This document shows positions 3,933 to 26,993 of a stretch of 28,060 bases of DNA, one piece after another. How positions within the stretch are numbered: position 1 is the stretch's first letter; every line of letters begins with the position of its first letter. The position numbers and the translations under genes were made by a program. The notes under the pieces are model-generated. The model had not been told where the DNA came from, ran no database searches, and was given only the letters and a program-made list of their open reading frames with translations. This DNA is from an uncultured Candidatus Saccharibacteria bacterium (GTDB taxonomy: Bacteria > Patescibacteriota > Minisyncoccia > Phycocordibacterales > UBA2100): contig CAYGFN010000001.1 in assembly GCA_964349145.1 (NCBI GenBank), positions 8,683 through 36,742 of the forward strand. The letters are read 5' to 3'.

Positions 3933-3943
3933 ATCTAAATCGG

Positions 3944-4016
3944 TGCCTGGGATCAGATTTGCACTGATGACCCTTCCCTCTTCAGGGGAATGCTCTACTA
4001 ACTGAGCTACCCAGGC
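3944..4016 (-). tRNA. tRNA-Phe(GAA), CCA not encoded
   Basis: 73-nt cloverleaf GCCTGGG/CCCAGGC; anticodon arm TTCCC-CTGAAGA-GGGAA; atypical A18, G55, G37. Confidence 0.92.
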
Positions 4017-4108
4017 AAGTGAGGGAAAATGGGAAGGCTTGCCTTCACATTTTACCCGAGCGCCGCCTAGACACGAATGTACCCAGGCGAACGTCGACAA
4101 TATACCAT

Positions 4109-5607: not shown

Positions 5608-7392
5608 CTAAGTTTCTCGGATTACTTTGAGAAAGACGTCATTTGGGATGTCGACTTTTCCACGCGCGAGCATCTTTTTCTTGCCGCGCTTCTGCTTGTC
5701 GAGCAATTTATTCTTGCGCGATACGTCTCCGCCATAGAGATAGCCTGTCACGTCCTTGCGCATGGCGGATTTTCTTCGCGACGCAATAATCTTGCCATCC
5801 GCTTTTGCTTGAATCTTGAGCTCAAAAAGCTGTCTCGGAAGTAGCTTCTCGAGCTTCTCCACCATCGCTTCCGCCTCGTGCGCGACTCGTCGCTTGGATA
5901 CAATGCGCGCAAATGCAGGTACCGGATCTTCTGCGACAAGCACGTCGAGCCGCATCACATCGGCGTCCTTCATACCGGTGAGCGTGTACGAGAGTGATGC
6001 AAAGCCGCTCGAAATACTCTTGAGTTTGTCAAAAAAGCCGCGCATGAGTTCACGCAGAGGCATTTCCGCGTGCACCGCGGTCTTGCCATCAGGTAATGAT
6101 TCACTCTCTCCCACCACTGCTTCATGGTCGTACAGTATCTGTGCGATACCTCCCAAATATGCAGGCGGCGACATCACTACCACATCGGCCCAGAGCTCTT
6201 CGATTCGTTTTGCTTGCCCCGAATCGGGAAATCGTGCAGGCGCGTAGACATCCTCAATCTCCCCGCTTGGGTGAGTGATTCGATAGACTGTCGTCGGCAT
6301 GGTCACAACAAGCTCGAGATTAAATTCGCGCTTGAGCCGCTCGATGACGATTTCCAAATGGAGCATACCGAGGAATCCGCATCGAAATCCCTTGCCCATA
6401 ATTCCCGATGATTCTTCTTCGTACGAAAGTGATGAGTCCGAAAGGCGCAGTCGATCGAGCGATTGCCGCAATAGCGGGAGATCGTCCTGAGATTCCGGGT
6501 ACACGCTTGCCCAGATGACCGGAGTGGGTTGCTGGTATCCCGGCAATTCCGGTGCCGCGTTGCGCACCGAGACGACCGTATCGCCTACCGAGGCAATGCC
6601 CGGGCGCTTTACGCCCGTCACGATGTAGCCAATTTCTCCCTGCGCAAGTTCTTCGGCGGGTGTCTCATCCGGCATCATGCGCCCCACCTCGACTGCAATG
6701 AAATCCGCATTCGCGGCCGCAAAACGGAGCGCATCCCCTTTTTTAATCGAGCCACCAAAGACGCGCGTATACACAATGACTCCTCGATGGTCCGAATACC
6801 CGAAATCGAAAATGAGCGCCTGCGTTGCGGCTCCCGACGACGTCGGGGGTGGTACGCGCCGGACCACTTCATCGAGCAGATGCTCGACACCCTGTCCCGT
6901 TTTCCCTGATACCGGCAATACATCGGCCTCATCGCATCCGAGAAGGAGGGCGAGCTCGCTCGTGATGTCTGCCACTCGAGAAGCGGGAACGTCAATTTTG
7001 GACACCGCTGGCACGATGACGAGCCCCAATTCTTTCGCGACCGAGAGGACCGAGAGTGTCTGTGCTTCGATACCCTGAGTCGAGTCTACGAGCAAGACGA
7101 CGCCCTCGACCGCCTTGAGGGCGCGCGAGACTTCGTACGAGAAATCTACGTGCCCCGGCGTATCGATGAGATTAATGATGTAATCCGCTCCTCCCACCTT
7201 CCAGCTCATGCGCACGGGCTGCATTTTGATGGTGATACCTCGCTCGCGCTCGAGATCCATGCGATCAAGGACCTGCTCCTGCATGTTTCGCTTCTCAATG
7301 GTGTGAGTCAGCTCGAGCATGCGGTCGGCAAGAGTACTTTTACCATGGTCGATATGAGCAATAATGCTGAAATTTCTGATATTGGAAGACAT
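5608..7392 (-). CDS. lepA: Elongation factor 4 (LepA)
   Basis: MSSNIRNFSIIAHIDHGKSTLADR, ERERGITIK, LIDTPGHVDF, GFRCGFLGMLH, KLLDKQKRGKKKM. True start is 7392, not 7452. Confidence 0.97.
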   Translation of the reverse strand: MSSNIRNFSIIAHIDHGKSTLADRMLELTHTIEKRNMQEQVLDRMDLERERGITIKMQPVRMSWKVGGADYIINLIDTPGHVDFSYEVSRALKAVEGVVLLVDSTQGIEAQTLSVLSVAKELGLVIVPAVSKIDVPASRVADITSELALLLGCDEADVLPVSGKTGQGVEHLLDEVVRRVPPPTSSGAATQALIFDFGYSDHRGVIVYTRVFGGSIKKGDALRFAAANADFIAVEVGRMMPDETPAEELAQGEIGYIVTGVKRPGIASVGDTVVSVRNAAPELPGYQQPTPVIWASVYPESQDDLPLLRQSLDRLRLSDSSLSYEEESSGIMGKGFRCGFLGMLHLEIVIERLKREFNLELVVTMPTTVYRITHPSGEIEDVYAPARFPDSGQAKRIEELWADVVVMSPPAYLGGIAQILYDHEAVVGESESLPDGKTAVHAEMPLRELMRGFFDKLKSISSGFASLSYTLTGMKDADVMRLDVLVAEDPVPAFARIVSKRRVAHEAEAMVEKLEKLLPRQLFELKIQAKADGKIIASRRKSAMRKDVTGYLYGGDVSRKNKLLDKQKRGKKKMLARGKVDIPNDVFLKVIRET

Positions 7393-7393
7393 A

Positions 7394-7522
7394 TCATTTA
7401 CCCGCCTGCCCCGTTGGAAGCGTAGCTTTCCAACCGGGGTGATCAACCCCATTAGAGACGCGAAGCGCTCTAATGGGGCACGTGTGAGCGATTATGGAAA
7501 AGTTTCTGATGTTCTGAGACAT
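7394..7522 (-). pseudogene. 42-codon upstream ORF: duplicated lepA N-terminus with two in-frame 36-nt palindromic inserts
   Basis: MSQNIRNFSIIAH[TCPIRALRVSNG]VDH[PGWKATLPTGQA]GK*; TATAGT 8 nt before the ATG; the TGA ends 1 nt before the lepA ATG. Confidence 0.85.
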
Positions 7523-7532
7523 GGAGAGACAC

Positions 7533-7600
7533 TATACCCCGTGAGATAAAAGAACTCTAATTACCTGAACTGCGCGGGACGATGTATCTCATGGGGTATA
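7533..7600 (+). repeat. Inverted-repeat element, family A copy 2 (36-nt interior)
   Basis: TATACCCCGTGAGATA (7533-7548) ... TATCTCATGGGGTATA (7585-7600). Confidence 0.9.
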
Positions 7601-18762: not shown

Positions 18763-18864
18763 TATACCCCGTAAGATATCTATTCGAGAACATTGATCTA
18801 TCAAGATCAAACTGCTTTGCGCGAGTGTGGTACTTGGCGCGGCGTCCTTATCTCATGGGGTATA
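18763..18864 (+). repeat. Inverted-repeat element, family A copy 4 (70-nt interior)
   Basis: TATACCCCGTAAGATA (18763-18778) ... TATCTCATGGGGTATA (18849-18864). Confidence 0.88.
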
Positions 18865-21800: not shown

Positions 21801-23213
21801 AAGCACATTTCGATCTTGAAGCGCCACGAACGGATCGAATGCATGAAAGGAGTCCCCGGGGGATTCGAATGCAGGTTCTACACCAACACCAATCTTTGCG
21901 TACATGTCGCCACTGAATACGACGCCCTCCCACCGATGTCCGGAATTGATGTAATCCCAGTCAGTGTTCACGCCGGCAGATCCCAGCACGTAACTCGGCG
22001 TCGTAAAGCCATACCGCACATTACTCCTCGTTGTCTCAAGAACATCCCAATGGTCGCCATTTTCGTTTGCATTTCCCGGTCCTGGCCATCGTTTAGCATA
22101 TGCGTATGTTCCGCGAGTGGCGGTATCCGCGGCCAATTTCACGACCGCGGCTGGCGGATAGTAGTTGCTCGTGGTTCGAGTGATATTGCCAAGCGGCGCG
22201 AATGTGCGCCCCGGGGAATTGAACATGAGGTCATACGAGCGGTCACTGAAGGAGTAGAAGCGATCATTGTTCTTAGTACGCGCCTTCGGGCCGCCGCGTG
22301 TCGTGTACAAGGTCTCCTCGGCCATATTGGCGTAGGCCAAGTCGAGAAACATCTCTGCCTTCTTGCGCAGCACCGGATCCTCTGCGAAATCGCGGATATT
22401 TGAATACGCGCCGATTGTTTCGTCTTCGTAAACAGGAGACGCTGCTTCGACGAAGAGACCGCGCTTCCCACGCTCGTCAATCCACGTAGAGATGTAATTG
22501 CGCCGTGCTGTGTATTGCTGCGCGAGCGTAGATCCGTCTGCGTAGCGTTGGGATGCGTAGGTCGGATTGTCTTTCAAAAATTGTGCCGCTAGAAAGCACC
22601 CTGTTGTTTTCGCTGCATGATGGTTTTCCGATCCGTATGATTCCCAGACGTTTTTATTCGCGGCCGCGAGCGTGCAAAATTGCTTCGCGACTGCCCACAT
22701 ACCCTGCTCCATTTTGGCTTGCGCTTGTGGAGTGATCTTGCCTGGCATATAGGGGCTTCCGCTCTTGAAGAGAGCATAGAGGCGCATGTAATCGACGGAG
22801 AACAGTCCAAAACCAAAATCCTCATGCGCGGGCCACACGTAGTGGCTCGAGGCAAAATAGCGATTGACGTCAGATGTACGCTGATTGAGCATAAAAGCGG
22901 CTATCCCGAAGCTTGTCCAACTAATGGGCCTGAGCGCCGTATCGGAGGTACCGGCGTCAGAACATTGGGCATCGCCGCATTTCAAGTCGCTGCCATTATC
23001 CACCATGACGAGGAGCGATTGGCGAAGGCGCTCTAGATAATCGCTCGGGAGATTCTGCATATAAGCCGGTGCCCAGGCGGCGCCGACAACAGCTGCAGAT
23101 TGAGAGTTCAACGGCACACTCGGACGAGTAGCCGTGAACATATGGAGGGCCCATAGTATCCCGCCGAGCAGCAGCAGGGACACAATGGCTTGCCGAGTGG
23201 TGAGTTTGGGCAT
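18876..23213 (-). CDS. Large exported/surface protein with an N-terminal helical enzyme-like domain and bacterial Ig-like repeats
   Basis: N-terminal TM/signal; four PTVxITxP...ASDN...VxF Ig-like repeats; one chitobiase/Fn3-like segment (VSPGTY...IHYTFDGTAP); Thr/Ala-rich. Confidence 0.8.
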   Translation of the reverse strand: MPKLTTRQAIVSLLLLGGILWALHMFTATRPSVPLNSQSAAVVGAAWAPAYMQNLPSDYLERLRQSLLVMVDNGSDLKCGDAQCSDAGTSDTALRPISWTSFGIAAFMLNQRTSDVNRYFASSHYVWPAHEDFGFGLFSVDYMRLYALFKSGSPYMPGKITPQAQAKMEQGMWAVAKQFCTLAAANKNVWESYGSENHHAAKTTGCFLAAQFLKDNPTYASQRYADGSTLAQQYTARRNYISTWIDERGKRGLFVEAASPVYEDETIGAYSNIRDFAEDPVLRKKAEMFLDLAYANMAEETLYTTRGGPKARTKNNDRFYSFSDRSYDLMFNSPGRTFAPLGNITRTTSNYYPPAAVVKLAADTATRGTYAYAKRWPGPGNANENGDHWDVLETTRSNVRYGFTTPSYVLGSAGVNTDWDYINSGHRWEGVVFSGDMYAKIGVGVEPAFESPGDSFHAFDPFVALQDRNVLITQVWAPAPPNSPLHLPVFLKLYFSPTLDEVWEEPKWIFVKEGNAYAAVRVVSGGYEWTPSAGWTHAEGSPVSNLRFITLRADSPVIIVVNEAKDYGNDFEKFKRAVRAQPLSNDNGVLTFSTLTFYGTAQLGKINGTTLNLSPALGYNSPFIRSAWNSGLICIKKGSDTLALDFRSSTNPSKTTSAYAACSYPAGVGADQPIIFPVPVGVDGASPTVSFSAPAPNATVSGLVTLAATASDNVAVTAVEFKNGSVTMGTDTSLPYSYPWNTTLVPNGARTLNVVARDAAGNRATSTRTVTVANTASVDTTLPTVAITTPTTGATVSGSAVTLSAMASDNRAIASVQFLVDGKNVGAPDTAQPYTVQWNSSAVANGSHSITATARDTSGNARTSVTTVVQVSNQVATPLPVPVVSVSPGTYDRPMRITLSAPGAGSIHYTFDGTAPTCTTGLVYTAPITITETVTLKAIACPSATPVSASKSFVAAVYESVRSMLASVFAVVTGGGVQPSPVSTFRYVITPDSILPSISITAPAVNAVVSGNAVVLSADASDNVDVSRVIFQIDGANVGSRDRVAPYQIVWNSLSIPNGTHTLSATVSDVNGNIRTASSRAIRVSNPATTTPTCALIAPATATASTPITLSWTSTSAPTSATLKQGATLLSGAIALPTGTRTLTPPATAGTYTYTLSVTNAAGTGTCSKKVIVTTVPAHNNHTPIGNIGQPNQDNQNCSISGWACDLDNLGTDLEIELYEGSTKLGQVKADVIRNNNSHDIALACGAAVNADGTFTKGFTPTKGFRVIFTGLTKGTHWISGYAKNINSAGMQSGTRGTLPRMSGYTGPVVCDPAIMTGTLTNAKTINIPPTPASTDTTLPTVSITAPAADAAVSGVVTLSASASDNIGLRSVQFRIDGVVVGPVFPSGPYVVEWGSTSVADGAHTVSATAIDTNGNTKTSAAVTIHVNNADTVIWTSEQQGVGSQ

Positions 23214-23303
23214 GAAAAAAGGATGAACATCATCCGCTACTCCATGACTGTAACATTGAACTCCTCGTCCAAATCTTCGAATGTGGACAGGTACACCTTA
23301 TTT

Positions 23304-23391
23304 TGGCGGAGGCGGAGAGATTCGAACTCTCGGTGCCTTGCGACACTCGTCCTTTCCAGGGACGTGCACTAGACCACTATGCGACGCCTCC
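23304..23391 (-). tRNA. tRNA-Ser(GGA), CCA encoded
   Basis: 88-nt class II cloverleaf GGAGGCG/CGCCTCC, anticodon loop CT-GGA-AA, long variable arm GTGTC-GCAA-GGCAC. Confidence 0.93.
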
Positions 23392-23634
23392 TCCTGAACC
23401 AAACTCTCGTTTGATTTGCTCTCTCTTATAACCTTTCTTATACTCGCGCTCAACACGAACTGATTCAAGCTCGGAACTCACTTCGATACTCTTGAGCAAA
23501 TCGAATGGTCGACGAGACTTCGTAGACGGCACGGCGCCGCGATTGTGCTCAGAGATTCGCCTTTCCAAATCATTTGTACGACCTACGTACAAATTGCCAT
23601 CCTTTTGACTCCGCAGTATGTAAACGAAAAACAT
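23377..23634 (-). CDS. Small stand-alone GIY-YIG nuclease
   Basis: FVYILRS...LYVGRTNDLERRISEHNRG...STKSRRPF; the last codons overlap the first 15 nt of tRNA-Ser. Confidence 0.9.
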   Translation of the reverse strand: MFFVYILRSQKDGNLYVGRTNDLERRISEHNRGAVPSTKSRRPFDLLKSIEVSSELESVRVEREYKKGYKREQIKREFGSGGGVA

Positions 23635-23642
23635 ACAGCTTT

Positions 23643-23689
23643 ACTAGACCCCTGCCTGCCTGCAGGCAGGACTATGCGACGCCTCCTCC
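23643..23689 (-). mobile_element. Duplicated 5' fragment of tRNA-Ser interrupted by a 20-nt palindrome-containing insert
   Basis: Exact copy of 23368-23394 (27 nt) with CCTGCCTGCCTGCAGGCAGG (23651-23670) inserted. Confidence 0.85.
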
Positions 23690-23694
23690 CACGC

Positions 23695-24210
23695 CTACTG
23701 CGTGGTCCCGCCATCGGCGGTGACGTGCTCAGAATTTATAGCACGTGCACGGCGACGGCGCTCGCGCGCATCACGGAAGTGAGCGCGCTGTTCGATAAGG
23801 CGCGCGAGCATGCGCCTCTCGAGCTCTGCTGCTTTCTGAGAAGCAATCCATCCGAGTGTCGCGAGCACCACGTTGATGGCGAGGACTCCGAAGAACGCGA
23901 TATAAAATTGCATCGTCCACGCAGGGGGAATCCCGATCGCGTGCGTAAGTAGAAAACTCCCCATCCCGACGACAACATCCATAAAGCGATTCTGTGGCGT
24001 CTCATGGATTTTCACCATCGCCTCCCACATTTCGTATGCCACAAAGCAGAGGAAGGCGATTACGGCAGTCGGGATAAACGGAAACCCGAAAATTTGAAAA
24101 CCGATTGCAACCGAGACGCCGGAGAGGAAGTGCACGACGCTCCAGAGATCAAGCCACTTCCCTTCGCGCCAGATGTCTGTCCGCACAAATCCGTTACGCG
24201 GACTATCCAT
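23695..24210 (-). CDS. Hypothetical membrane protein
   Basis: About 4 TM segments; WSVVHFLSG and YEMWE motifs; starts 1 nt after the htpX stop. Confidence 0.75.
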   Translation of the reverse strand: MDSPRNGFVRTDIWREGKWLDLWSVVHFLSGVSVAIGFQIFGFPFIPTAVIAFLCFVAYEMWEAMVKIHETPQNRFMDVVVGMGSFLLTHAIGIPPAWTMQFYIAFFGVLAINVVLATLGWIASQKAAELERRMLARLIEQRAHFRDARERRRRARAINSEHVTADGGTTQ

Positions 24211-25114: not shown

Positions 25115-25215
25115 TATACCCCGTGAGATATTCCGTCGGAATACCTCAAAATTCGCGTATTCTCGTCACGTTTCATTCTAGTTGCAACGCTATACTTTAT
25201 ATCTCATGGGGTATA
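25115..25215 (+). repeat. Inverted-repeat element, family A copy 5 (69-nt interior)
   Basis: TATACCCCGTGAGATA (25115-25130) ... TATCTCATGGGGTATA (25200-25215). Confidence 0.9.
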
Positions 25216-26892: not shown

Positions 26893-26993
26893 TATACCCC
26901 GTGAGATATAAAAATCTACCTTCACAATCCTTTCATGTAGCATGTCAAATACCGACCGATGTCAGCAATCGAACGCATGTCTCATGGGGATAC
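26893..26993 (+). repeat. Inverted-repeat element, family A copy 6 (69-nt interior, degenerate right arm)
   Basis: TATACCCCGTGAGATA (26893-26908) ... TGTCTCATGGGGATAC (26978-26993). Confidence 0.85.

Follow-up and report, generated by a model that had tools for sequence, protein, structure and literature searches.

A GIY-YIG nuclease gene with GC-rich hairpins, inserted as a very probably mobile cassette at the 5' end of a tRNA-Ser(GGA) gene of an uncultured Candidatus Saccharibacteria bacterium

The stretch of DNA analysed here (the window) comprises 28,060 nucleotides from an uncultured Candidatus Saccharibacteria bacterium. Within 23304-23740 it carries, on the minus strand, a small GIY-YIG nuclease gene placed between an intact tRNA-Ser(GGA) gene and a second, interrupted copy of the 5' end of that tRNA (the stub). 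Listed from upstream to downstream on the minus strand, the features are the following.

23734-23740, minus strand: TATAAAT box, conserved with an empty allele of the locus (alignment)
23690-23723, minus strand: double-hairpin module of 34 nt, without counterpart in the empty allele (alignment with G005)
23671-23689, minus strand: stub piece 1, GGAGGAGGCGTCGCATAGT, copy of tRNA positions -3 to +16, an exact 19-nt repeat
23651-23670, minus strand: 20-nt GC-rich hairpin inserted inside the stub, a one-base variant of the dispersed palindrome CCTGCCTGCCGGCAGGCAGG
23643-23650, minus strand: stub piece 2, GGTCTAGT, copy of tRNA positions 17-24 with 0 mismatches
23635-23642, minus strand: spacer of 8 nt between the stub and the ATG
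23377-23634, minus strand: 85-codon single-domain GIY-YIG nuclease gene (ORF list; Pfam PF01541, E=1e-15)
23368-23394, minus strand: functional downstream copy of the 27-nt repeat, tRNA positions -3 to +24
23304-23391, minus strand: tRNA-Ser(GGA), intact, the only copy in the genome (ARAGORN; Rfam tRNA, 57.5 bits, full length)

A preliminary description of this DNA had listed a duplicated, palindrome-interrupted tRNA 5' end beside a GIY-YIG ORF, and every item of it was found at the positions given there. With the insert left out, the two stub pieces together reproduce the 27 nt of 23394-23368. Within the stub the 20-nt hairpin separates tRNA position 16 from 17, immediately ahead of the D-loop GG, and lies 16 nt upstream of the nuclease ATG. 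The perfect 16-bp palindrome at 23655-23670 gave two overlapping matches at this one site, against 0.01 in shuffled versions of the window, and the predicted DNA fold of 23635-23730 has an energy of -23.6 kcal/mol (z -3.1). At its other end, the nuclease ORF runs into the tRNA: its last 17 nt lie within tRNA-Ser(GGA), whose D-loop TAG serves as the stop codon (23379-23377). The downstream tRNA-Ser is intact, as had been described, according to both the ARAGORN call and the full-length Rfam match, and a similarity search of the genome's own contigs returned a single close match to it. The neighbouring genes encode an M48 peptidase, a membrane protein and a 1445-aa surface protein. The double hairpin, absent from the preliminary description, is placed between the TATAAAT box and the stub, and the upstream membrane-protein ORF takes its final 9 codons and its stop from it. 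A consensus promoter scan of 23200-23900 found nothing. Judging from the sequence, the TATAAAT box is likely the -10 element of the native tRNA promoter, so that the native promoter region would now stand upstream of the stub and it is plausible that the nuclease gene borrows it.

For comparison, 27 tRNA-Ser(GGA) loci of the same genus were fetched. Twenty-four of them are empty: they lack the nuclease gene, and a promoter-like TATA box stands 7-12 nt upstream of tRNA +1. The locus of G005 (L039) is syntenic with that of the window (M48 peptidase (HtpX), membrane protein, tRNA) and its promoter-tRNA junction is uninterrupted. The alignment extends across the upstream gene as far as ...TATAAATCCTGGGCAC, after which the tRNA of G005 follows directly; the TATAAAT box of G005 stands 12 nt before +1. 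Relative to this allele the window displays 329 extra bases (23723-23395) between the promoter region and tRNA +1, made up of the double hairpin, the split stub, the spacer and the ORF; the extra DNA starts with the double hairpin and ends with a gene abutting a complete tRNA. In the same alignment, stub piece 1 occupies the native position behind the promoter region. Since the syntenic site is empty in G005, these 329 nt were inserted in the window, which bears out the earlier view of the cassette as an insertion; the search for empty single-tRNA alleles that had been proposed is answered by G005 and by the 24 of 27 empty loci. The arrangement is identical, with no differences, in contigs from four public runs (one study). 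These presented the filled allele only, with no same-strain empty allele or excised form, and the other joints in them derive from tRNA-Ser loci of other organisms. We consider it very probable that a mobile cassette inserted at tRNA-Ser(GGA) here; its mobility is well supported, and its way of moving is what we infer below. Separately, in the empty allele of G005 the membrane-protein ORF reads into the tRNA, up to the same D-loop TAG as that used as stop by the nuclease ORF of the window.

Integrase-borne islands and introns are well known for inserting at tRNA genes, and the position in the D-loop region together with the duplicated tRNA end gives the locus a superficial resemblance to them. 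That it is a tRNA intron, an integrase-borne island or an artefact of assembly is, however, scarcely credible. The tRNA is uninterrupted, and an Rfam scan of 22800-24200 returned the tRNA and sub-threshold noise but no intron family. No tyrosine or serine recombinase gene was found among the neighbours of the duplicated tRNA end (ORF list, Pfam), and the inserted DNA amounts to only 329 nt; the statement that no integrase or intron core is evident thus stands for the flanks as well as for the Rfam scan. An assembly artefact was rejected because the four runs are identical and the layout is present in dozens of independent assemblies.

The nuclease has 85 residues, of which the Pfam GIY-YIG match covers 1-71. 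Apart from the related T5orf172 and MUG113, which match the same stretch, searches of Pfam and NCBIfam disclosed no further domain family, and the match to TIGR01453 (25 bits) was far under the 56-bit cut-off. All residues conserved in its subclade are retained. The subclade's own stop codon has been lost in the window gene, with the result that the ORF reads 17 nt into the tRNA, a common state elsewhere in the family. Among published systems the nearest is the Ssn family (cd10448; PMC11893778, Chenal et al. 2025), site-specific ssDNA nucleases of 94 aa that consist of a GIY-YIG domain only and whose genes are framed by hairpin repeats. They cut only ssDNA, a few bases upstream of the cognate hairpin (NTS/SRM), and curb transformation; in Neisseria, SsnA/NTS restricts or shapes incoming ssDNA (PMC11893778). 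The window resembles this system in having a catalytic-domain-only protein (about 90 aa there), in the gene lying beside GC-rich hairpin repeats of 20-50 nt dispersed in many copies, and in a gene-plus-hairpin layout that recalls an insertion sequence. It differs in that the 3' partner is a tRNA gene rather than a second hairpin, and in that the 5' hairpin lies inside a duplicated tRNA stub. It differs in profile scores as well: the family profile was best against the UPF0213 structures 1zg2 and 1ywl (78 and 60 bits), followed by SLX1, against 55 and 51 bits for two GIY-YIG proteins from NTS-pattern loci. Those two came from a pattern scan in which 2 of 120 NTS loci had a GIY-YIG gene, with the NTS repeat 50 nt upstream in one; one NTS-adjacent protein shared 33% identity over 69 aa with the window protein (pairwise E 2e-10). 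A search of an N. lactamica genome for SsnA returned only a YhbQ-like protein. On these similarities we regard the nuclease as probably of the Ssn/UPF0213 kind. Since it has no DNA-binding domain and its nearest characterised kin cut only ssDNA beside hairpins, cleavage of the duplex tRNA gene in the classical manner appears, by analogy, doubtful.

The same kinship raises the possibility that nuclease and hairpins form an Ssn-like system serving the host, restricting or shaping incoming ssDNA, and that the position at a tRNA merely gives strong expression. The published function of Ssn (PMC11893778) speaks for it, as do the 19 hairpin copies in the own genome and a nuclease that looks intact and is conserved within its subclade. 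We nevertheless hold this to be quite unlikely, because the genes are patchy (0-8 copies per genome) and the locus is empty in most relatives, decayed copies exist, several unrelated lineages sit on the same tRNA, and the presence of the hairpin is poorly correlated with that of the nuclease.

The preliminary description had proposed to look for the same architecture in related genomes, and it does recur. The own genome (0.83 Mb) carries seven such GIY-YIG genes. A second complete cassette is found there at tRNA-Gln(UUG) (G000:C78:60-380 joined to the end of C16), with a 34-nt hairpin after tRNA position 12 and an assembly break inside the tRNA. In 41 genomes of the genus and order there were 117 matches (0-8 per genome), and 25 of these genes end between -22 and +16 nt from the 5' end of a same-strand tRNA, where simple arithmetic predicts about 0.1 such adjacencies by chance. 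The tRNAs concerned are Ser, Gln, Glu, Ala, Thr, Tyr and Leu, and most of the 25 copies display either a stub split by a GC-rich hairpin or a double hairpin after the stub. When metagenomes were scanned with the window protein, 21 of 83 matches were of this tRNA-5' type; commoner among them was a mirror 3' type, in which an intact tRNA is followed by the ORF and then by a hairpin-broken copy of the tRNA 3' part. The seven closest metagenomic relatives (57-75% identity) all lie at tRNA-Ser(GGA) or Ser(GCT), all with the 20-nt palindrome exactly between tRNA positions 16 and 17, and their stub pieces match the local tRNA although those tRNAs differ. A new isoacceptor with both stub pieces matching needs a fresh duplication, which simple homology-driven copying does not give. 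The roles suggested earlier for the palindrome, protection from re-cleavage or marking of the element end, are conjectural; in other cassettes the hairpins stand elsewhere in the tRNA copy as well (6/7, 10, 12, 14, 16, 20, 36). Between stub and tRNA no kind of ORF other than GIY-YIG was found, in more than 40 loci.

A tree was built with 104 proteins, and the metagenomic relatives were added afterwards. The tRNA-5' copies form one clade (SH-aLRT 87) and the tRNA-3' copies another (97); the copies that lie between inverted repeats fall into three groups, each near-monophyletic. The clade of the window (96) spans Ser(GGA) and Ser(GCT) once the metagenomic relatives are included. A single origin of the Ser(GGA)-linked genes was rejected (AU p 0.004, for a group partly defined after the first tree), so that tRNA-Ser(GGA) has been colonised separately by at least three nuclease lineages, and one lineage has changed its tRNA. 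The hairpins of the lineages that colonised Ser(GGA) stand at 12/13, 14/15 and 16/17. Turnover is visible in decayed copies, one with a premature stop (G012) and one with an N-terminal deletion (G031). In the own genome (G000:C11:7960-8122), a tRNA-Leu(CAG) 5' stub split by the 20-nt palindrome and with no ORF lies only 27 nt from the intact tRNA; its structure suggests that it is probably a cassette minus its gene.

The stub alleles are informative in a few loci. In G011, the part of the stub to the left of the hairpin shares its allele with the syntenic relative G010, and the part to the right, like the functional tRNA, is a different allele; L314 likewise has a left-stub allele differing from the right part and the functional tRNA, and L132 carries a foreign allele over all 41 nt of its stub. 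These patterns fit a cassette that would bring its own tRNA sequence and leave the resident 5' end behind. In most stubs, that of the window included, both pieces equal the corresponding part of their tRNA, so this asymmetry is no general rule. A test for consistently greater divergence of piece 1 than of piece 2 from the local tRNA, which would point to a junction of resident sequence on the left with incoming sequence on the right, found it only in L047, L314, L111 and L313. Stubs match the local tRNA almost perfectly despite 25-43% protein divergence, which means either that the insertions are recent or that conversion or selection keeps the copies alike. The right end of the stub ranges from 23 to about 38 among close relatives, and reaches a near-complete tRNA copy elsewhere; on account of this variability, a target-site duplication of fixed length produced by a staggered cut was rejected.

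These data bear on whether the nuclease takes any part in transfer. Being framed by conserved tRNA sequence, the cassette could spread by ordinary homologous recombination after DNA uptake as a passive hitch-hiker, its nuclease persisting for other reasons. The tRNA arms on both sides would allow it, ComEC and DprA are present, the chimeric stubs are compatible with plain recombination, and the 85-aa protein has no DNA-binding domain. Against this, the DNA between stub and tRNA encodes nothing but GIY-YIG genes across those more than 40 loci, the type of context tracks the nuclease clade, and passive spread would hardly yield switches of isoacceptor accompanied by new local duplications. We therefore judge passive spread unlikely.

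The hairpin of the window belongs to a wider family. As a query, the one-base variant found here is single-copy in the own genome, whereas the perfect 20-nt palindrome CCTGCCTGCCGGCAGGCAGG from which it differs is multi-copy, with 19 copies at up to 1 mismatch, 0-9 copies in relatives and 0 for a reversed-pattern control. In viral contigs it occupies 45 sites; at 44 of these no GIY-YIG gene lies close by, and the full layout is present at one. The 20-nt palindrome is thus a dispersed element in its own right, and the 'lone nuclease gene' of the preliminary description has to be amended, given that the cassette also carries hairpin modules and that one of these belongs to a separately dispersed family. 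The palindrome also occurs in genomes without the nuclease subclade of the window (G016, G008); among the 41 genomes its presence showed no clear association with that of GIY-YIG genes (14/1 vs 20/6) and no tight link to any nuclease subclade. Because it exists in subclade-less genomes and stands mostly alone in viral contigs, the pairing of nuclease and hairpin is not established. The double hairpin at 23690-23723 is of the same family as two 36-nt inserts in the cassette of G011, and no other copy of its motif was found in the own genome. That the hairpin prevents loss by repeat recombination was considered and rejected, since an exact 19-nt repeat persists.

Single copies of the palindrome were observed in diverse surroundings. 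In viral contigs it lies in the variable loop of an otherwise complete-looking tRNA-Met (L300:2239-2330 and L277 near 8616). In the own genome it is found inside atpD and rarA-like frames (G000:C79:2179-2198 and C34:5893-5916), where the frame is kept and about 7-8 residues are added.

Structured repeats beside tRNA genes are common in this genome: 15 of its 40 tRNA genes are accompanied by a repeat, 9-17 nt long, of one of their own ends (5' or 3'), and the DNA in between consists of structured, ORF-less inserts of 60-175 nt that fall into families. One could propose on this basis that palindromes and other structured elements duplicate tRNA ends and that the nuclease gene is trapped cargo, a reading with which the same logic at lepA, where there is no nuclease gene, and the precise insertion of the palindrome in many contexts also agree. 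The cargo, however, is always a GIY-YIG gene of one clade, and the ORF-less forms may equally well be deletion derivatives or elements mobilised in trans; we find such hairpin-driven rearrangement very unlikely as an account of the cassette. A further reading takes the nuclease and the 20-nt palindrome as the autonomous and non-autonomous members of a new system akin to transposition, in which a GIY-YIG enzyme that hydrolyses ssDNA would, with host repair, write cassettes into tRNA ends with variable terminal duplications and also scatter the bare palindrome, even in frame into essential genes such as atpD. We regard it as improbable.

The reading that we favour, if only by a modest degree of belief, is that the 5' end of tRNA-Ser(GGA) holds a cassette which is, or recently was, mobile and which consists of an Ssn/UPF0213-kind nuclease gene plus GC-rich hairpins. 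Under this proposal the nuclease gene and the tRNA would be co-transcribed from the displaced tRNA promoter, and RNase P would free the tRNA from the joint transcript. Spread would take place via break-and-copy or transformation-type recombination; ComEC and DprA are present. The portable homology would be the conserved tRNA sequence itself, with the stub as left arm and the full tRNA as right arm, so that the essential tRNA would never be lost. By analogy with Ssn, the nuclease might act on ssDNA beside its hairpin and thereby drive or bias copying; the duplex tRNA gene would not be cut in the manner of classical homing endonucleases. That the nuclease promotes its own spread seems to us an evenly balanced matter, and that it does so by cutting empty tRNA genes rather unlikely. 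If the enzyme depends on a hairpin in the way of Ssn enzymes, it would find no site in a naive tRNA gene, and initiation at empty alleles would be left unexplained. The fresh duplication needed when the cassette changes its tRNA also counts against this reading.

Several other systems share part of this picture. SegB is a free-standing GIY-YIG homing endonuclease in the tRNA gene cluster of T-even phages (PMC13096335). Like the Seg and Mob nucleases of those phages, the family described here has its gene among or beside tRNA genes, an invasion-decay cycle, and a presence/absence polymorphism at a conserved site, the empty alleles being those of G005 and the 24 of 27 loci. The 85-aa protein, however, lacks a second (DNA-binding) domain. 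Seg proteins have DNA-binding domains and cut duplex DNA, and they are not known to leave hairpin-broken duplicates of the end of the target gene. Fungal mitochondrial mORFs, such as that at atp6 of Allomyces, replace the end of the host gene while the old end stays as a duplicate; GC-rich double-hairpin elements lie nearby, and the mORFs are fused in frame to the 3' end of organelle protein genes. The likeness lies in a GIY-YIG ORF with its own copy of a host gene end, a resident end reduced to a pseudo-fragment, and GC-rich hairpins. The stub plus complete tRNA of the window, and the foreign-allele stubs or junctions of G011, L314 and L132, make the cassette an analogue of these elements. 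It differs from them in that the 5' end (elsewhere the 3' end) of a bacterial tRNA is duplicated, in the hairpin lying within the stub, and in the lack of an in-frame fusion. REP/REPIN-RAYT systems and the Rickettsia palindromic elements also present short palindromes scattered in a small genome and framing a single enzyme gene, and the Rickettsia elements in addition lie in frame in protein genes, as the palindrome in atpD does here. RAYTs, however, are Y1 (HUH) transposases that cut and rejoin, whereas a GIY-YIG enzyme only hydrolyses, and neither REP/REPIN-RAYT nor the Rickettsia elements are known to duplicate tRNA ends. No description of a tRNA-linked nuclease-hairpin layout was found in the literature, and the word tRNA has 0 occurrences in the Ssn paper (PMC11893778). 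The cassette thus appears to be a recurrent and undescribed kind of selfish DNA living on tRNA genes.

If this is correct, a 0.3-kb element with little beyond an 85-residue nuclease gene and hairpins would represent a new minimal strategy of selfish DNA, because it rebuilds the tRNA that it enters. Ssn-type ssDNA nucleases would gain a second biology, that of mobile elements, and the tRNA-end duplicates and GC-rich palindromes that pepper ultra-small genomes (as at the 15 of 40 tRNA genes here) would be explained. The nuclease-hairpin pairs would also be candidate reagents for site-specific ssDNA cutting.

Other structured repeats were observed in the window and its genome. At lepA (7392-7522, minus strand), the real start is at 7392, and 7522-7490 hold a diverged copy of the initial 33 nt, which two hairpins separate from the start; a MITE-like element lies just upstream, and there is no nuclease gene. 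The tRNA-Phe gene (3942-4016; insert region 4017-4088, minus strand) has a 9-nt copy of its 5' end 72 nt upstream, and its 63-nt structured insert is related to the one before tRNA-Thr(GGU). About 38 inverted pairs of TATACCCCRTGAGATA, each enclosing 62-64 or 94-103 bp, make up a MITE-like family in the 0.83-Mb genome; in the window they lie at 1989-2052, 7535-7598, 18765-18862 and 25117-25213, with a solo arm at 26895-26907. Arms of this family also bracket the GIY-YIG paralog on contig C5, and a second arm family brackets the C18 paralog and four short pairs. Within the TATACCCCRTGAGATA pairs, one arm always carries a G and the other the matching T, so that each pair has a fixed G-T mismatch.
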